Positions 3,121 to 54,121 of a stretch of 64,000 nucleotides of DNA are shown in pieces (position 1 is the stretch's first letter; each line of letters opens with the position of its first letter). Below the pieces are notes generated by a model. The model was given only the letters and a program-made list of their open reading frames with translations, made no database searches and was not told the origin of the DNA. The position numbers and the translations under genes are program-made. Source of the stretch: Escherichia phage Gostya9; sequence record NC_047979.1; one strand, given 5' to 3'.

Positions 3121-3366
3121 TTAATTAAGCGGCATCAGGCTAGAACTAACACCACAAACAACGGCGGCAATAAAACAAAATAAGCCTAAACGCTTTGCCA
3201 GCTTTGACTTGCGTTTAAAATAATACGAATCCAGATCATTTTGGAAATATGCAAACAATAATGAGGCCGCCACAATAAATAAGCCTAGAATTAACGATTC
3301 AGTGGGATAAAAGATCATTTTAATAATTCCAGTTAAAGGGAAATTATAGTGGGGAGTATTCCCCAC
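3121..3366 (-). CDS. small membrane protein
   Basis: 81-aa ORF with two hydrophobic segments. Confidence 0.45.
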   Translation of the reverse strand: MGNTPHYNFPLTGIIKMIFYPTESLILGLFIVAASLLFAYFQNDLDSYYFKRKSKLAKRLGLFCFIAAVVCGVSSSLMPLN

Positions 3367-3375
3367 TAATTAAGT

Positions 3376-3792
3376 TTATTCACCTGCTGACTGTTTTACT
3401 TCATCTGCTACGCCTAGTAATTGCGCTACGGCGTCCAGCGTTTCTAATTTTGCGCTTTCCAGGCTTGCCAGATCGTCAGCGTCTTTGATAATGCCGGAAT
3501 CAATGGCGTGTTTTGCAATTACACGCACATAATGCGCCTTGCGGATTGAACTACCGCCGCCAACTTTGCGCGGTTTATCGCTTTTCTGATACGCTTTTGC
3601 GCTGGTCAATTTTGAGCGAACAGACACAGGGGAAGTAGCGCCCACTGTTTTGGCGATCTCTTTCAGGCCGTCGCTGTTGGCGAACTCAAGGCCGTTTTCA
3701 TTGATTAACTGCTGATACATAGAAACGGCTTTTTGGGTATTTTCTTCATTCCATGCAAATTTTGCGGATTTTTCGGTTTTAACGTTAGTCAT
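3376..3792 (-). CDS. putative HTH DNA-binding pre-early protein (possible A2-like)
   Basis: 138-aa ORF; helix-turn-helix-like segment LKEIAKTVGATSPVSVRSKL; conserved RBS context; A2 assignment is a guess. Confidence 0.45.
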   Translation of the reverse strand: MTNVKTEKSAKFAWNEENTQKAVSMYQQLINENGLEFANSDGLKEIAKTVGATSPVSVRSKLTSAKAYQKSDKPRKVGGGSSIRKAHYVRVIAKHAIDSGIIKDADDLASLESAKLETLDAVAQLLGVADEVKQSAGE

Positions 3793-3893: not shown

Positions 3894-4145
3894 TTATGCT
3901 ACAGCTTCCCATTTTTCGTTACGCTGGGCAACCTTTACAACGTCGCCAGATTTAACGCGAACGCTAAAAACGGTTTTTCCGTTGTTGCTACGTTCCGTTT
4001 CTGCATATACTGCATCAATTACATCAAAAGGCATAAGCGCCGCGCCTTTGATGCGTTCGGCTTTTCCGGTTGCCTCGTCCGTTTTAGTAACGAAAGGGAT
4101 GAAAACGGATTGACCAATTTTTGGCGCGGTGATAGCGTTTTTCAT
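3894..4145 (-). CDS. hypothetical protein
   Basis: 83-aa ORF with GGAG RBS context upstream. Confidence 0.45.
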   Translation of the reverse strand: MKNAITAPKIGQSVFIPFVTKTDEATGKAERIKGAALMPFDVIDAVYAETERSNNGKTVFSVRVKSGDVVKVAQRNEKWEAVA

Positions 4146-5200
4146 GGTATAAACTCCAGTTATTTGATGGATTGTTCCGCATTACCTGCTAGAAAAGGGA
4201 TAACAGGTAATGGGTAACGATCCGTTCGCCGTTAAAATCAATTTAAGGAACTCCACACAGGCCGCTATATCCCGTTAGGGGGCGGGACACCTTATGGCAA
4301 GTGCCGGCCGTCAAATTGTACCAAGTTATTGCTCTTGTTGAATCGGGTACATCTTAAAGCCCATCGGCTAGGGTGTCAAATTATTTTTCGTTTTCTTTTA
4401 AATTAGAATTCTCCCAACTGAATTGCATCTCGCAAAATATTTTCCCATCTTTATGATGGTAAGATATTTCGCTCCCGTGGTTAGCACAAAAAGCGATCAC
4501 TGCCTCAGCTTGTTCCACCGTGATATTGTTAGCCGTTTCTTTGATTTTCATATCGTCGATTCCTTATAAGGTTAATAAGTTTGCCGCCGATAGGCTTTAA
4601 GGTGTACCTGATTTTTAAAGAGCGCGCGGCGGTAAACTCCCCGCCGTGTAGTCCGTTGCCGTCCTACGAGATAAATAATAGGGAATACCCAAAAATGGTG
4701 CAACCTTAATTTTGTAAAGAAATGTAAAGAAAGCAAATACTCGCACCGCGTCCGGTGATCGCCCAAGTTTAAAGGAAACGAGCGCGTGGATACCATAAAA
4801 CCGAGCTGATTGGCAAGTAATTTTTTCATTTTTATTTGCCTTGCCCTACTTGACAAATTCTAAAAAGCTCGTGGTGACGATAAACGGGCTGCCCCTTTAT
4901 GATGGGATACCTGAAAAAATTATCGCGTTAGAAAGCGTTTTTGGCCGCTTATTTTCGATTTAACAAATATTTAACAAAAGCAAAAATGAAAAATAGTTTG
5001 AAAAGGCATTGACTTTTAAAAATCAAGACTAAATGAGTTATTTTATAAAATTAATTAATTGACTTTTATTTGTTGTTGTGTAGTAGAAAGATAGCAGACT
5101 AATAATTACTAGAATGATAATCATGCTGGTGGGTTGTAACAGCCTGAACTATTAGCAGACTACTGATCCCGGAAAATATCATTAGCCAACTAACTATTCC

Positions 5201-47543: not shown

Positions 47544-47576
47544 AGCCAGGTTGCTAGTCGACCTGGCTTTTATTTT
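47544..47576 (+). terminator. rho-independent terminator after nrdD
   Basis: GCCAGGT..ACCTGGC hairpin followed by TTTTATTTT. Confidence 0.6.
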
Positions 47577-47578
47577 AT

Positions 47579-47607
47579 TTGCTTTCAGCTAAAAATATAT
47601 GTATAAT
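47579..47607 (+). promoter_or_regulatory. sigma70 promoter
   Basis: TTGCTT-17-TATAAT followed by conserved leader and GAGGAGG RBS. Confidence 0.65.
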
Positions 47608-47636
47608 AGATTTATAAATTTGAGGAGGTAGGAATT

Positions 47637-48017
47637 ATGGCTTTAAAACCGTATATAGTGGAGTCTACGTGTGGTGGTTTCCACCTGGGTGTGGATGATA
47701 TTGCTGAGGCTGTCTTTGCTGCCACAGGTGATTACTCTCATATAGAGGGTGCTGGATACCCCACCGTTATTGGTGATTGGGTGGAAACAAATCTAGATGT
47801 ATCGCCTTATAACCCGTATTGCTTGTTTGATGAAGACAGAGATGAAGTAAAATGTAATCTTGAATTTGTGTATAATAGAGTGTTAAAAGTATACCAACGT
47901 AGTCCCGAGGGATACGAAGATATTACTTGGAGTATTAAACAGTATCTTAAAGATGTATACTCTAGTTTTTCTGACGAAGGCCTAGAAACAGTTGCAGTGG
48001 AGTTTAATAATGACTAA
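47637..48017 (+). CDS. hypothetical protein
   Basis: 126-aa ORF with strong RBS. Confidence 0.5.
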   Translation: MALKPYIVESTCGGFHLGVDDIAEAVFAATGDYSHIEGAGYPTVIGDWVETNLDVSPYNPYCLFDEDRDEVKCNLEFVYNRVLKVYQRSPEGYEDITWSIKQYLKDVYSSFSDEGLETVAVEFNND

Positions 48018-48243
48018 GAATGTGAAACACCTTAAATATCGTTTAATCTATAACGGACGTATGGAAACTGAAGAGCTAGCTCAATTAGCTATTAACTCTA
48101 ATGAGGTTATGGTGCGTGCGCTAGCAATTGAAAAGTTGCGGGCTTCTTATGAAAGTCGTATTATGGAACTAGAGGAGAAACTTTATGGACTTCTCGAAGC
48201 CGAAGCTAGAAGCAATTCAGAGGACAGGCCTACTAAGCAATAG
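48010..48243 (+). CDS. hypothetical protein
   Basis: internal ATG after GTGGAG RBS; overlaps upstream stop. Confidence 0.4.
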   Translation: MTKNVKHLKYRLIYNGRMETEELAQLAINSNEVMVRALAIEKLRASYESRIMELEEKLYGLLEAEARSNSEDRPTKQ

Positions 48244-48311
48244 AAGGTATGTATATAGGGAGTAATTTTACCTCAAAACATTATTGAAGGATTTAAGAGA
48301 GGGATTGTACA

Positions 48312-49139
48312 GTGCGTAGATTAATTATTATTAGCGGTGCAGGTTTGAGTGTTGAAAGTGGTGTACGAGCCTTCCGTACTGATACTGCTAGTGGTAAAGC
48401 ATTGTGGGATGATTATGATCTAGAAGAAGTATGTAATATTCATGCCTTTCGTGGTAATTTTTATCATAAAACTCATATGTTTTACAACAAGCGTCGTGAA
48501 GAGTTAGAAACTGTTGAACCCAATCTTGCACACTTGCGTATTGGTGAATGGCATAAGAAATACCAGGGTCAAGTAGTAAACTTGACTACCAACGTTGATG
48601 ACCTTATTGAGCGTGCTGGCGTTCCACATAGTGACATTCTGCACATTCATGGGTATTTAAAAGAGGTTGTTGTAGCTGATAGCTACAATAGTAGCAATAA
48701 ACGAGTTATTGATGTTGGGTATAGCTCTATTGACCCAGAGGATTATAAATGGGTTAAACCTAATGTAGTCTTCTTTGGTGAGCATGCTCCAGCGTACGCA
48801 GAAATGTACAATATTTTTGATGGTATTACCAGTCAAGATATGATTATTGTGGTTGGTTGCTCTAACCAAGTAATTAACTTCTACTGGGAATTATTCCCTG
48901 TTCTTAACCGTACTGCTGCGAAACTTATGGTGGTTAACTACTACGATATTACCCTCGCGGCAGAACCAGGCTATCAAGGTATGACTCGTAGTGAGATGTA
49001 CCAACTGGAAGAACGGGGTATTCCTTACTGGGGTAAAGGTGCGGTAGATGCTTTCAGTGACCCTGATTTTATTGCTCGTGTGGAAGCCCATTTAGAGGGT
49101 AGACCTTATATGCCGGGGAACAAATATGTCCATAGTTAA
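48312..49139 (+). CDS. Sir2-family NAD-dependent deacetylase / ADP-ribosyltransferase-like protein
   Basis: 275 aa; N-terminal GAGLSVESGVRAFR matches the sirtuin GAGIS.ESGIP.FR NAD-binding motif. Confidence 0.65.
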   Translation: MRRLIIISGAGLSVESGVRAFRTDTASGKALWDDYDLEEVCNIHAFRGNFYHKTHMFYNKRREELETVEPNLAHLRIGEWHKKYQGQVVNLTTNVDDLIERAGVPHSDILHIHGYLKEVVVADSYNSSNKRVIDVGYSSIDPEDYKWVKPNVVFFGEHAPAYAEMYNIFDGITSQDMIIVVGCSNQVINFYWELFPVLNRTAAKLMVVNYYDITLAAEPGYQGMTRSEMYQLEERGIPYWGKGAVDAFSDPDFIARVEAHLEGRPYMPGNKYVHS

Positions 49140-49308
49140 ATCTGTATGTACACATCCCGATGATATATTTGTATGGGCGGATGGTAGTTGGTGTTATCGA
49201 TGTGAGCTATGGGAAATGGACTATAAATCCGATGACTATGGTGTCATATATGTTGATACGGTTGAGTATGATACGTTCTTAGAAAGGAACAAAAATGGAA
49301 ATAAGTAA
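49126..49308 (+). CDS. small Cys-rich protein
   Basis: 60 aa with C..C..CYRC pattern. Confidence 0.4.
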   Translation: MSIVKSVCTHPDDIFVWADGSWCYRCELWEMDYKSDDYGVIYVDTVEYDTFLERNKNGNK

Positions 49309-49681
49309 TACTCCAATTATTTTTCTAGACATTGATGGGGTGCTTAATTCGAGCATCTCCCATCACCATGCACCTGATGATGAAAAGGTTTTCTTTGGAA
49401 GTGACTGGGTTTTTAAACCGCTTCTCAAGGTTTTTCAGGACTTTATTCGTCCTTCTCCAATAATGATTGTTGGGGTATCCTCATGGTTCTCTGTCAGGAA
49501 TGAGATGGAGAACGTTCAGATTATGACCGGATTAGGTCTTATCGATCGTTTTCTTGGTATAACGGGTTTTACTGGTGGTGGGCTATCTAGAGGTAATTCT
49601 GTTCTTCACTTCGTTGAAAAGCATAAGCTCAAACATTGGTGCTATGATGTATCAGTATCCAACGGTTATAGTCAACGGTAG
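49295..49681 (+). CDS. HAD-like phosphatase
   Basis: 128 aa; HAD motif I FLDIDGVLN at N-terminus. Confidence 0.5.
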   Translation: MEISNTPIIFLDIDGVLNSSISHHHAPDDEKVFFGSDWVFKPLLKVFQDFIRPSPIMIVGVSSWFSVRNEMENVQIMTGLGLIDRFLGITGFTGGGLSRGNSVLHFVEKHKLKHWCYDVSVSNGYSQR

Positions 49682-49783
49682 AACTGGAATAAATCTTCAA
49701 GATTTAAGAGCTGTTAGCTATATGCTAGAATTTAGTCCAGATCTTGAAATGTGTAAAGCTCTACAACAATTTAAGGTGTAAAT

Positions 49784-50212
49784 ATGTTCAATAATGTATT
49801 CTCTAAAGAAGCTAACCCAATATTGGTTAATTTTTGGCGTACTCTTCCAGCCAACCTGTACAATGAGGCTATTAATGCTCTGAAAATATGGTGTGAGAAT
49901 AATGAAATCTCCTTTGCTTTTAAGGATGAGATTGAAGAAGCTCCCTGTATTGGTTTAATTGTGCAGGTAGAGGATGGCTTTGAAGAGATTGTCGGCTGGA
50001 AAGAGTTGGATGAAATGGGATTGGTTTTTGCATTAAACTATAAGCTGTTTATGCCTAATAAACACCGTATTGTTGTTAATTATAAAACCAGTGAATCTCC
50101 TGGTTTTCAAGTTAATGAACATTACGGTTGGTCTTACTCACCGGAAGAAGTAAATGATGGTATCCAAAGACTTCGTCGTTTTGGTTATCAAATTCCGGGT
50201 TTAACTGCCTAA
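49784..50212 (+). CDS. hypothetical protein, tandem paralog A
   Basis: 142 aa; shares EE.PC.G..L..MGL..AL...LF.P and C-terminal GY.IPGL with 50222..50614. Confidence 0.5.
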   Translation: MFNNVFSKEANPILVNFWRTLPANLYNEAINALKIWCENNEISFAFKDEIEEAPCIGLIVQVEDGFEEIVGWKELDEMGLVFALNYKLFMPNKHRIVVNYKTSESPGFQVNEHYGWSYSPEEVNDGIQRLRRFGYQIPGLTA

Positions 50213-50221
50213 GGGGGCACA

Positions 50222-50614
50222 ATGGAACAAGTATATTGGCGTCAGATTGATCCTAGTTTGGTGAAGAGTGCGGAGAAGCTGCTACAACGTTGGTTGGGGG
50301 TAAGACAAGCCTCCTTCACTTTTCCGGAGCAGCAAATAGACGATCCCTGTGTTGGTGTTTTCCTATCAGGCTACGCTAGGGAAGTGGAATTGGATTGGAA
50401 TGAATTGTCTGCTATGGGTTTAATTGTTGCACTAGATTTCTCTTTGTTCCATCCAAGTGGTTTGGCAATATGTCGTGTGCCTGATGACGGTTGTTCGCCC
50501 CATCTTTTACAGGTGGAAGATAATATTTGGGAGTACCCTCCAGATATTCTCAAAGAAGCTAAAGAACAATTAAATCGTGTTGGGATTTATGTTCCAGGCC
50601 TGAATGATGAATGA
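50222..50614 (+). CDS. hypothetical protein, tandem paralog B
   Basis: 130 aa; paralog of 49784..50212. Confidence 0.5.
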   Translation: MEQVYWRQIDPSLVKSAEKLLQRWLGVRQASFTFPEQQIDDPCVGVFLSGYAREVELDWNELSAMGLIVALDFSLFHPSGLAICRVPDDGCSPHLLQVEDNIWEYPPDILKEAKEQLNRVGIYVPGLNDE

Positions 50615-50635: not shown

Positions 50636-50663
50636 TTACCGAGTCATTTTGGCTCGGTTTTCT
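50636..50663 (+). terminator. rho-independent terminator
   Basis: ACCGAG..CTCGGT hairpin followed by TTTTCTC. Confidence 0.55.
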
Positions 50664-50705
50664 CTATGCTCAAAGACACTGGTAGCAGCATCCGGAAAAT
50701 TTTAC

Positions 50706-50734: not shown

Positions 50735-51331
50735 ATTTATATTGAATTGAGAGACATTAGTAAAAATTGATTTTGCTAATTTTTCTTAGTGAAGCTGACA
50801 AGGGATTTACGGCGAGAGGAATCGATGACCCGTAAATAGCTGCATAAGGTACGTTGCTAGAGCTTTACGAAAAAGTTTTTTCTTGTTTACAATCCGCGAT
50901 ACGGAACAGTTAGGCTGCCCCATTAAGGGTTGTTTTAACTGTTACGTGTTAGTTTTTAAACAACTAATTAATAGAATACTTAGCGATCTGCGTCCCATAG
51001 GAACCCTGGTAAGGCCTCGAAGCAACCTAGTATGAGGTGGTTGTGAAGTGAGATGGGAGGAGTGAAAAACTACCGAGACGTGATTCTGTAAGTTATATTG
51101 CATCTAGTATGAGCTAGTATATGAAGCATTAGGTGAGCAAATCTGGCTTAGCGGCCATCCTCAAGGATTTGTGCGGTATAATGAGGCAGCAGCGCAGCGT
51201 GAAAGTGGAAGTTGCCACCCCACTTCAGTATTTGCAATTAATTTGTTGAGAAATTGACAGTAACAGTTGTTCTATTCTTTCTGAATAGTCCTAAAGAAAA
51301 CTTATTTCATTTCCAACACAGGAGTATTGTT
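50735..51331 (+). ncRNA. candidate structured non-coding RNA / long leader (function unknown)
   Basis: promoter-proximal; only tiny ORFs; multiple hairpins (ATTTACGG..CCGTAAAT, ACAGTTA..TAACTGT, CCC-ATTAA-GGG); higher GC than flanks. Confidence 0.35.
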
Positions 51332-54121
51332 GTGTTTTCAATCCTACAAGGTCATGCAGGATTTCATCGCGATTTAGCCACGGGCAATTGGCGAGAAGTT
51401 AAAGCAGAAGATTATCTTTTTGCTAAAAGATTTTCCTCAAAGCATCCTGAAGGTAAACCAGCTTCAATGCCCTTCAAGTTTGATGTAATTGACGAAGTTG
51501 ATCCTCAAACCCTAGTAGAAATGCTCCCTCTTATGAGACGTTTAACGTCTGACCCTCATATCGTTGCGGTACGAGGTCGATGTCTTGCACCTAAAAATAA
51601 TGTGCGGCGTAAGAAGGGCAACTTTAATGTATCTAATCCTAGTAATATTATTGCTATGGACGTGGATGGTATTGTAGATACAGGTGGTTGTAACAAGTTT
51701 GATCTTGTTGGCATGGCTCGACATATTATTAGGATGTTAAATAGTATTAGTGAGGATATGTTTCCTCTTGATGCAGGGTTTATTGCTCATGCATCGTCTT
51801 CGGCTGGGCTAAAACCAGGTATCCGAATGCACTTAATACTAGAATCTAATGTTAAAGTAACTCAGGGTCAAATCAAGTTCTTATTTACATCTATCAACGA
51901 AAGTAGTAGACAAAAGTATGGCTTTGATATTGCCGACTTAGCTTATTACTCTTCCGTACAGCTCCATTATTTTGCAGATCCTCTATTTATTGATGGTATA
52001 GTTGATCCGTTTAAAGCGGAGGGTGCTTCACGTCTGGTATTTGTTAAGGGTTCTAAAGTAAATTTACCTAATAATCTAGTTGACTATGAAACAACTAGAG
52101 GAGAGTTTAAAGAGGAATTCTACTCTTTACTCGATCAAATTAAAGGTAAAAAAGCTGCCTCTGATAAAGTAGAGGAAACTATCAGTGAGCTAGAAGAGGC
52201 TGATGATGGGGTATACTTACGTATTATTCCAAAGCTATATCACCGAGCGTTAGAGGATGGGGTAGATTTTGGTTGGCTAGAAAAAGAAATCCGCCCAGCT
52301 TTATCAGAATATATTGCAACTAAAGATAATAGCCGTAATATTCAAGACTACTTTAACAACGGTCGAAAACAGGCTCTGAAAGCATTTGTTAATAATTCTA
52401 AACGTGATATACCCGATGTTTTAAAAGGTATTCCGCTTAAAAAGCTAGAAACTAATTCACTAGAGACCGACAACTTCTTGAAATTAAATACTGTACCACC
52501 AGAAGGCTATATGACTTTTGTAAAAGCAAGTCTAGGTACAGGTAAAACCACGGCGGTTGTGCGTTGGCTGGATTCAGGAGTTATTAAAGGTAATTTCTTA
52601 GCAGTTACCAACACTAGAGCACTGGTATCTTCAAATGCTAAGAAATTTAGTGCAGGACAATACGATAAGTCTGTAGATATGCTTAATTTTAAGCGTGGTG
52701 CTATTGACCGTATGTCCACAACCATTCACTCTTTGCATAAGTTTAAGAGTTTTATTGGTCAAATTGATGCAATCTTTATAGATGAATGTGATGCAGTAAT
52801 GAATGACCTATTATTCGCCCCGGTTGTTAAGCAACGTCGTGAGTGTATTCAGGTTCTTCGTGATATTCTTGCAACTGCAAAAATCATTATACTATCCGAT
52901 GGTGATATTAGTGCCGAGACGATTGAAGCATATGGTTCTTTGATTGAGTTCGATAAACCAGTTGCATTCTATAATCATCACCGTAAGATGCTGTCAAAAG
53001 CTCATGCTTATGAGTTCCCTGATGAGTCCAGTATTTGGGTTGCACTTCAGACTTCTCTAGAGATGGGTGAGAAATCTATTCTAGTATCTGATTGTGGCCC
53101 TGATGAGCTGAATGAGAAGGGTATGGCACTACGTCGTAATACTGGTGCATTAGTTAAAGAAATCCATTCAAACTCCACTTCAGATGTGGATATTCGACGT
53201 ATTCTGGATTATACAACTAATGAGCTAATTGATCAACAAATTGATTGCTTATTATGTAGTCCATCCGTAACGAGTGGTGTTGACTTTAACTATTTCGATA
53301 ATGTATTTGTTATTACTAGAACCAGTAATCAGGCGCCAAACATGCGTTTTCAAGCAATCAGGCGCGACCGTGGTGCTCAGAATATCTATTATTTTATTGA
53401 TAAATCCACTAGTGGATTCTCTGCGGGTTCTGAACAATATAATATCGATGAAGGTTGGCTGGAGTTAGCACAGCAATTATATGCACGTCGCAGGGAGCTG
53501 GAGTCTAGGAACTATACTAGTACTTTACGTTATTACTTGCTTGATCAGGGTGCAACTATTGATATTTTCAGTGAAAGCTGGGGAACTATTGAAGGTGCTG
53601 GTAAAGAATACACAGAAGAGCGAATCAAAGCTATTCTACATTCAACTCCTGATTATTGTGCTCCACGTCATGCGGATGCGTATGAGGCTAAACTACTTAT
53701 TGTTCGCTATTATCATCTTGAGTCTATTAAAGATGTAACAGTTGAGCATGTTGAACAATATATCAAAGATAAGCCGAATGATCGAGCTGCATTCTTCCAT
53801 AAGATGCACGAGATGTTCTGGGAAGATATTAAGAAGTGTTCAAATGTGACCATTAAACCATTCATAGAAGCTCTGAAAGGTAAGAAGAAAGATTTCTTCC
53901 TTAAAACAGGTCAGAGTGCTAACCCAAAATATGCTAGAATGTATCTTGGTATGATGGGTATTGGTAAAGATATGAACACGGAGAATATCGTAGACTGGTA
54001 TAGAACCTACTGCAAAATCGAATGTATGCCAATTCCTTTCAAATTCATGACAGAAGAAGAGAAAGCTATGGCAGAAGAAGCAATGTCAGAGCTAGGTGCT
54101 AGAAATGACAGTGAAGAATAA
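51332..54121 (+). CDS. superfamily helicase-like protein (putative replication-origin-binding protein)
   Basis: GTG start 8 nt after AGGAG RBS (929 aa); Walker A GTGKTT and Walker B IFIDECD. Confidence 0.6.
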   Translation: MFSILQGHAGFHRDLATGNWREVKAEDYLFAKRFSSKHPEGKPASMPFKFDVIDEVDPQTLVEMLPLMRRLTSDPHIVAVRGRCLAPKNNVRRKKGNFNVSNPSNIIAMDVDGIVDTGGCNKFDLVGMARHIIRMLNSISEDMFPLDAGFIAHASSSAGLKPGIRMHLILESNVKVTQGQIKFLFTSINESSRQKYGFDIADLAYYSSVQLHYFADPLFIDGIVDPFKAEGASRLVFVKGSKVNLPNNLVDYETTRGEFKEEFYSLLDQIKGKKAASDKVEETISELEEADDGVYLRIIPKLYHRALEDGVDFGWLEKEIRPALSEYIATKDNSRNIQDYFNNGRKQALKAFVNNSKRDIPDVLKGIPLKKLETNSLETDNFLKLNTVPPEGYMTFVKASLGTGKTTAVVRWLDSGVIKGNFLAVTNTRALVSSNAKKFSAGQYDKSVDMLNFKRGAIDRMSTTIHSLHKFKSFIGQIDAIFIDECDAVMNDLLFAPVVKQRRECIQVLRDILATAKIIILSDGDISAETIEAYGSLIEFDKPVAFYNHHRKMLSKAHAYEFPDESSIWVALQTSLEMGEKSILVSDCGPDELNEKGMALRRNTGALVKEIHSNSTSDVDIRRILDYTTNELIDQQIDCLLCSPSVTSGVDFNYFDNVFVITRTSNQAPNMRFQAIRRDRGAQNIYYFIDKSTSGFSAGSEQYNIDEGWLELAQQLYARRRELESRNYTSTLRYYLLDQGATIDIFSESWGTIEGAGKEYTEERIKAILHSTPDYCAPRHADAYEAKLLIVRYYHLESIKDVTVEHVEQYIKDKPNDRAAFFHKMHEMFWEDIKKCSNVTIKPFIEALKGKKKDFFLKTGQSANPKYARMYLGMMGIGKDMNTENIVDWYRTYCKIECMPIPFKFMTEEEKAMAEEAMSELGARNDSEE

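Follow-up and report, generated by a model that had tools for sequence, protein, structure and literature searches.

Two short neighbouring genes at the end of an early phage operon raise the question of whether both descend from a single gene, how long ago they parted and what they might do as a pair. The window, i.e. the whole 64,000-nucleotide stretch analysed here, is that of a T5-like phage, the DNA of the region being 92-96% identical to T5-like phages, e.g. Tennessee, HildyBeyeler and S131. The preliminary description had placed two adjacent ORFs of about 130-140 aa in it, and they are found exactly where it put them, encoding 142 and 130 aa. An early operon ends with them, upstream of the gene for the origin-binding protein, in the following arrangement:

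47544-50614, plus strand, operon: from the nrdD terminator through two small ORFs, the Sir2 gene, the T5.104 orthologue and the HAD_SAK_2 gene to ORF1 and ORF2
47544-47568, plus strand, terminator after nrdD, behind which the operon starts
48312-49139, plus strand, Sir2-family gene, operon member
49126-49308, plus strand, T5.104 orthologue, operon member
49295-49781, plus strand, disrupted HAD_SAK_2 phosphatase gene (T5.105 orthologue), directly upstream of ORF1
49784-50212, plus strand, ORF1, 142 aa, A-type paralogue and T5.106 orthologue (ORF list and synteny)
50213-50221, plus strand, 9-nt spacer between ORF1 and ORF2 (GGGGGCACA), holding the ORF2 ribosome-binding site
50222-50614, plus strand, ORF2, 130 aa, B-type paralogue and T5.107 orthologue (ORF list)
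about 50638-50668, plus strand, intrinsic terminator with a 9-bp stem (5 G-C pairs) and a T run, closing the operon

ORF1 ends in a TAA stop codon followed by the spacer, the two ORFs share one frame, and each is preceded by a plausible ribosome-binding site (AAGGTG 5' of ORF1, GGGGG 5' of ORF2). The annotations of T5, of Serratia phage Slocum and of Klebsiella phage Sugarland have a terminator at this place too.

Pairwise alignment, which had been proposed as a check of the relationship, gives a similarity far above chance: BLASTP aligns ORF1 and ORF2 with 38 identities in 126 positions (30%), 48% positives and an E value of 2e-19. The shared core described earlier, PC.G ... W.EL..MGL..AL...LF.P, is seen in both proteins. 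The C-terminal motif, which had been called identical, has only the part G-x-x-[IV]-P-G-L in common, ORF1 reading FGYQIPGLTA and ORF2 VGIYVPGLNDE, and the G, P, G and L of this tail are invariant in 19 T5-like sequences. Both proteins match the Pfam family DUF7415 (PF24187), with 113.6 bits for ORF1 and 100.7 bits for ORF2 at a gathering cut-off of 27 bits, as well as nearly the full length of phrog_2502, i.e. residues 11-142 of ORF1 on profile positions 2-134 of 134 (E 2.8e-62) and residues 1-129 of ORF2 on positions 4-134 of 134 (E 1.6e-58). Public resources thus already imply that the two are paralogues, since they assign both to one Pfam and one PHROG family; this family is uncharacterised, and the original wording of a gene of unknown function still applies. 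No third DUF7415 copy was found by HMM search within the 64-kb window. Compared with an Epseptimavirus orthologue, ORF1 and ORF2 show dN/dS values of 0.08 and 0.20, respectively (overall range 0.07-0.2), and both are under purifying selection. A chance resemblance, or ORFs that do not code for protein, can be practically dismissed given the E value of 2e-19 between the proteins, family HMM scores far over the cut-offs, the dN/dS range of 0.07-0.2, the confident structure models described below and the retention of the genes in more than 500 genomes.

In T5 itself, the counterparts are T5.106 (YP_006934) and T5.107 (YP_006935), annotated as 'conserved hypothetical proteins', which have the same lengths and the same position, i.e. 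after Sir2 and T5.105 and before the terminator and the origin-binding protein gene. Amino-acid identity reaches 98% between ORF1 and T5.106 and 92% between ORF2 and T5.107; these are reciprocal closest relatives in a conserved gene order and thus form orthologous groups. While the pair in the window differs from that of T5 by point changes only, the T5.105 orthologue of the window is broken and T5.103 is missing. A tblastn search with ORF1 returned 1018 places in 522 phage records, nearly all T5-like genomes carrying both copies, and the order A then B is identical across about 520 T5-like records. Sugarland, a member of the Demerecviridae outside the Markadamsvirinae, likewise harbours an A-then-B pair, here with a 4-nt overlap and without a HAD gene, and a single copy occupies the same site in Slocum and in Pectobacterium phage DU_PP_V.

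The age of the duplication was estimated from a neighbour-joining tree of 33 two-module proteins, based on a score-based distance and 200 bootstraps. The T5.106-type proteins cluster with Sugarland gp141 and its relatives (98% bootstrap), and the core of the T5.107 type has a bootstrap value of 91%, while lineage-specific groupings of A with B, i.e. T5.106 with T5.107 or gp141 with gp142, appeared in 0 of 200 bootstraps. Since the A-types of the two lineages cluster and A never groups with B, the duplication predates the split between Sugarlandvirus and Markadamsvirinae. The single copy of DU_PP_V is B-type in the tree, and that of Slocum is loosely placed, grouping with the A-type in 57%. The tandem paralogues are therefore ancient and have been kept together throughout Markadamsvirinae and Sugarlandvirus; in other lineages, one copy was lost or never gained. 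The copy-number comparison in relatives, which had been suggested earlier, thus yields two copies in about 520 T5-like records and in Sugarlandvirus, and the proposed duplication with divergence is supported, albeit as an ancient and fixed state and not as a recent local event.

Several further observations concern the neighbouring genes. The HAD_SAK_2 gene carries a 20-bp deletion between about positions 49636 and 49637, flanked by a TGGTG repeat, which leaves a 128-aa ORF and an out-of-frame remainder of 68 aa, as against 168 aa in T5 and Tennessee. Among the best matches listed of 200 phage records, none has this deletion and all retain the 20 bp, and the disruption may be either a real loss or an assembly error. 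T5.103 and T5.104, which are adjacent in T5 at 3244-3602 of locus L002, both belong to phrog_5116 and have a DIF..G.WCYR motif in common (E 2e-5), i.e. they form a further tandem pair; T5.103 is absent from the window and from Tennessee, where the T5.104 orthologue stands alone (97% identity). Downstream, the ORF of the origin-binding protein (51254-54121) opens with a TTG start and encodes 955 aa, compared with 928 aa for T5.108, so that the true start probably lies about 27 codons downstream of the TTG. With this later start, the intergenic region behind the ORF2 terminator comes to about 0.6-0.7 kb.

Structure prediction, which the preliminary description had also named as a check, gave confident AlphaFold2 models for both proteins (ORF2: pLDDT 92, pTM 0.85; ORF1: pLDDT 87.5, pTM 0.82, with residues 1-12 disordered) and an identical order of elements, i.e. 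two strand-helix-strand-strand units followed by a long helix and an ordered tail. The parts of the two proteins map to the DNA as follows:

49826-49969, plus strand, ORF1 N-terminal DUF7415 module, residues 15-62 (64.7 bits for this half alone)
49988-50119, plus strand, ORF1 C-terminal DUF7415 module, residues 69-112, degenerate (52.9 bits for this half alone)
50141-50209, plus strand, ORF1 C-terminal helix and G-Y-Q-I-P-G-L tail, residues 120-142 (from the model)
50228-50374, plus strand, ORF2 N-terminal DUF7415 module, residues 3-51 (57.4 bits for this half alone)
50390-50515, plus strand, ORF2 C-terminal DUF7415 module, residues 57-98, with the canonical signature (47.5 bits for this half alone)
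50540-50611, plus strand, ORF2 C-terminal helix and G-I-Y-V-P-G-L tail, residues 107-130 (from the model)

In the models, the N-terminal module of ORF1 comprises a helix (23-36) and strands 42-46 and 55-62, and that of ORF2 strands 2-4, 29-33 and 45-49 with a helix at 11-25. The C-terminal part consists of a helix at 120-132 followed by an ordered coil in ORF1 (pLDDT 87-97) and of a helix at 107-120 followed by a coil with a pLDDT of about 91 in ORF2. Since each half exceeds the Pfam cut-off and the unit is doubled in two independent models, we assign two modules to each protein. Each would thus be an internal duplication of a beta-alpha-beta-beta module of about 50 aa, which is probable rather than proven. 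All four halves, scanned singly, surpass the 27-bit cut-off of DUF7415, although the Pfam seed may include N halves of T5-like proteins, and an HMM built from single-module proteins missed the N halves of both ORF1 and ORF2. When 38 two-module sequences were compared with the single-module family by hhalign, the internal repeat was in register (P 9e-4, probability 23%); profile-profile comparison of the T5-like sequences alone gave no signal for it. Both proteins are markedly acidic, with a pI of 4.74 and a net charge of -8 for ORF1 and a pI of 4.45 and a net charge of -11 for ORF2, as are all members of the family (median pI of the module cores 4.5). Among T5-like phages, the hairpin of the B-type N-module is the most variable part, with a column identity of 0.53-0.58 over residues 31-60 vs 0.83-0.91 elsewhere.

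The two paralogues have not diverged evenly. The canonical signature of the single-module proteins, DWNELS..GL..IN...HP.GLA..R....G.S......D...Y, recurs in the C-module of ORF2 as D-W-N-E-L-S..G-L...F-H-P-x-G-L-A..R.P..G.S-P, with the single exception of an Asn-to-Asp replacement (core HMM E 5e-18), and is found neither in the C-module of ORF1 nor in either N-module. The single-module family HMM recognises ORF2 over residues 56-118 (E 9e-23), and stand-alone modules of unrelated phages reach up to 58% identity with the ORF2 C-module. The C-module of ORF1 is weakly recognised by single-module family HMMs (E 1e-9 and 1e-5) and is without the S, H, GLA and R, M-P-N-K-H-R..V standing in place of H-P-x-G-L-A..R; Sugarland gp141 was not detected by the single-module HMM. 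Hence, the full signature survives in a single module of the four, the C-module of ORF2, and all that is left in the other three is the hydrophobic skeleton. In Slocum and DU_PP_V, whose protein is single-copy, the signature is retained. That the A copy degenerates where two copies exist would, judging from the sequences, fit a division of labour or a hetero-complex with one site. As to the exception itself, residue 72 of ORF2 (positions 50435-50437) is an Asp in place of the family-invariant Asn of the 'IN/LN' motif through a single A-to-G change, the window reading ALDFS vs ALNFS in T5, Tennessee and the other T5-like sequences examined.

Taken as a description of the pair, this account is in our view secure.

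What the pair does has to be approached through the family. When 1.84 billion representative proteins were searched exhaustively with a profile (E below 1e-3), 149 clusters of DUF7415 were obtained, about 20 of them with two modules and about 120 with one. In the PHROG collection, single-module relatives of phrog_2502 are phrog_3954, phrog_33705 and phrog_1812. While most members have one module, alone or fused, the T5-type proteins have two modules plus the helix and PGL tail. The one-module core reads DWNELSxxGLIxRINxEILHPLGLAxxRxPxTGxSxGALVxxDGxWEY, and the polar residues N, H, S, D, W and Y are near-invariant in the module core of 56 residues. Copies of the module are either stand-alone proteins of 62-100 aa or parts of fusion proteins, in which it may lie at either end; the partners are a dATP/dGTP pyrophosphohydrolase (MazG-like), thymidylate kinase, DUF3850/ASCH, Phage_Cox, a ClpX-type zinc finger, DUF551 and an Rv2179c-like 3'-5' exoribonuclease, to which Lar-like zinc ribbons and Ead/Ea22 tails may be added as fusions judged by eye. 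It is found in P2-like, lambdoid, T4-like and T5-like phages and in prophages of Gammaproteobacteria, and 24 loci, most of them gammaproteobacterial, came from a pattern-limited scan of bacterial genomes.

The stand-alone genes occur in varied surroundings. The T4-like Jiaodavirus phages carry a 72-aa DUF7415 gene between nrdD and nrdG that overlaps both (Klebsiella phage JD18, locus L004, 3989-4207). In Aeh1, the module gene lies directly behind the RNA ligase gene rnlA with a CCA-adding enzyme nearby, and in Margaery it adjoins a NUDIX gene. Many P2-like IMG/VR contigs (L012-L088, at about 4001-4150) harbour a stand-alone gene of 62-70 aa between L (head-completion) and X (tail), a moron-like insertion in the late operon just upstream of the lysis genes, and other stand-alone copies on P2-like contigs are near replication gene A. 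In the rV5-like Escherichia phage JohannBauhin (locus L115, 2640-5762), a Sir2 gene adjoins genes for an RNA ligase, a polynucleotide kinase and a phosphoesterase, which suggests that the Sir2 of rV5-like phages is part of an RNA-repair or NAD-related module.

Searches for a known function or fold returned little. No enzyme family in Pfam, NCBIfam or the structure searches matched ORF1 or ORF2, and neither PADLOC nor NCBIfam gave a meaningful match for their family. The PDB sequence search with two profiles had no match at E 10, and structure searches with the models found no solved structure resembling the two-module fold. The best structural neighbour was the anti-CRISPR AcrIC4 (PDB 8dfo chain M); a known defence or anti-defence protein was nonetheless rejected, as there was neither a profile match to the PADLOC models nor significant structural similarity to AcrIC4. 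Public T5-like records label the orthologues 'exonuclease', 'tail tube protein' or 'RNA-binding protein', and no domain or structure supports these labels. We rejected 'exonuclease' ('ACLAME 70') because no nuclease family matched in Pfam or NCBIfam; the label probably spread from the Rv2179c-like exonuclease-DUF7415 fusion proteins of P2-like phages. Likewise, 'tail tube protein' was rejected for want of a Pfam or PHROG match and of tail-tube structural neighbours, as well as by the location of the pair in an early operon beside replication genes. Linkage to Sir2 was also discarded as a functional clue, and we take it as Demerecviridae synteny only, DUF7415 being absent within 5 kb of the Sir2 homologues of rV5-like, KVP40 and SE131 phages. 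Our literature search found DUF7415, T5.106 and T5.107 named in no main text.

The supplement of a genome-wide CRISPRi-ART knock-down screen of T5 (PMC11879866) lists T5.107 among 17 'Fit' genes with a fitness of -2.90 (p 0.0215), a call that is marginal (p 0.02), and the study describes the gene as 'of entirely unknown function'. With T5.107 being the last gene before the terminator, its score is unlikely to stem from a polar effect. T5.106 and T5.102-T5.105 are given there as 'Not Fit', as is the gene of the origin-binding protein; since this insensitive screen missed the latter, the 'Not Fit' of T5.106 means little.

On these grounds, we tentatively read the pair as non-catalytic binding proteins, an interpretation, with the mechanism outlined here, that falls somewhat short of probable. 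It is suggested by the acidity of the proteins (pI 4.45-4.74) together with the lack of an enzyme, defence or solved-structure match in the searches above, by the promiscuous fusions at either end of the module, by stand-alone copies in accessory positions of P2-like and T4-like phages, and by a variable hairpin within an otherwise conserved protein; the 'Fit' call of T5.107 in the supplement of the screen argues for a functional relevance of the pair. Single-module DUF7415 proteins would probably be homodimers, and the two-module proteins would then probably be covalent pseudo-dimers of the module with one canonical site left. The functional surface would be that of ORF2, with ORF1 as a diverged partner or scaffold. 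Both would probably be made in equal amounts, and an A-B hetero-oligomer is possible, as co-retention, fixed order, close coupling and the asymmetric loss of the signature would suggest. Early in infection, the pair would bind a protein or ligand at the interface of nucleotides and nucleic acids, as an accessory factor of host takeover or counter-defence. Against a role in binding only, the near-invariant polar residues could form a catalytic or ligand pocket instead of structural caps, and the link to nucleotide-metabolism genes may be a mere effect of gene-dense early regions gathering small accessory ORFs.

Two other readings were weighed. Like the ACT and ferredoxin-like ligand-binding regulatory domains, the models show an alpha/beta sandwich of repeated beta-alpha-beta(-beta) units, and the family shares with these domains the fusion to metabolic enzymes and, as predicted for DUF7415, the formation of dimers or pseudo-dimers. 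The pair could consist of ACT-like subunits acting as regulators or ligand sensors in the nucleotide or NAD metabolism of the phage, the (pseudo)dimer binding a nucleotide-derived small molecule and tuning neighbours such as NrdD, Sir2, the HAD phosphatase or MazG, or it could be a 'sponge' for signalling nucleotides. We consider this unlikely, however, as the proteins are strongly acidic and no nucleotide-binding motif could be recognised in them, Slocum carries the gene without nrdD nearby, DUF7415 is lacking within 5 kb of Sir2 in rV5-like, KVP40 and SE131 phages, and many P2-like copies lie in late or lysis regions far from metabolic genes. If the conserved His, Asp, Ser and Asn were an active site instead, the proteins would be small enzymes, ORF2 active and ORF1 a pseudo-enzyme; N16, H21, S36 and D44 are indeed invariant or nearly so in the 56-residue core, and the A-type loses residues only where a B-type exists, as in enzyme/pseudo-enzyme pairs. 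This seems very improbable for a module of about 50 residues whose conserved positions are mostly at helix caps and beta-turns, which resembles no enzyme family or fold, and which in the ORF2 of the window has an Asp at the invariant Asn.

The surroundings of the pair invite yet another explanation, i.e. that the two proteins work alongside Sir2 and the HAD_SAK_2 phosphatase in a cassette for RNA repair, e.g. by recognising RNA ends or tRNA. The upstream gene is of the 'Swiss Army Knife RNA repair' type, the Aeh1 module gene directly follows rnlA and has the CCA-adding enzyme near it, the rV5-like Sir2 adjoins RNA ligase, polynucleotide kinase and phosphoesterase, and fusions exist to the Rv2179c-like exoribonuclease and to ASCH domains. 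An acidic surface is, however, ill-suited to RNA binding, Sugarland, Slocum and DU_PP_V carry DUF7415 without a HAD gene, both DUF7415 genes of the window are intact while its HAD gene is broken by the 20-bp deletion, and the RNA-repair cluster of rV5-like phages lacks DUF7415, which together make this explanation quite unlikely.

Duplication as such is routine, tandem paralogues being abundant in phage genomes, and the pair belongs to a catalogued though uncharacterised family. The value of the locus therefore lies in this DUF7415 family, i.e. in its breadth, its lack of a solved structural relative and the fitness signal of T5.107. Its fusion partners point to nucleotide and nucleic-acid biology. 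It is tempting to speculate further that DUF7415 is an unprecedented binding module and that T5.106 and T5.107 would form an obligate, asymmetric one-site hetero-complex needed for efficient T5 infection, neutralising a host factor or sensing or sequestering a nucleotide-derived metabolite, although we hold this extended version to be doubtful. The pair is now a defined target: its architecture is two-module, ORF2 has the one canonical site, ORF1 is the degenerate partner, and phages with one copy only provide natural controls.
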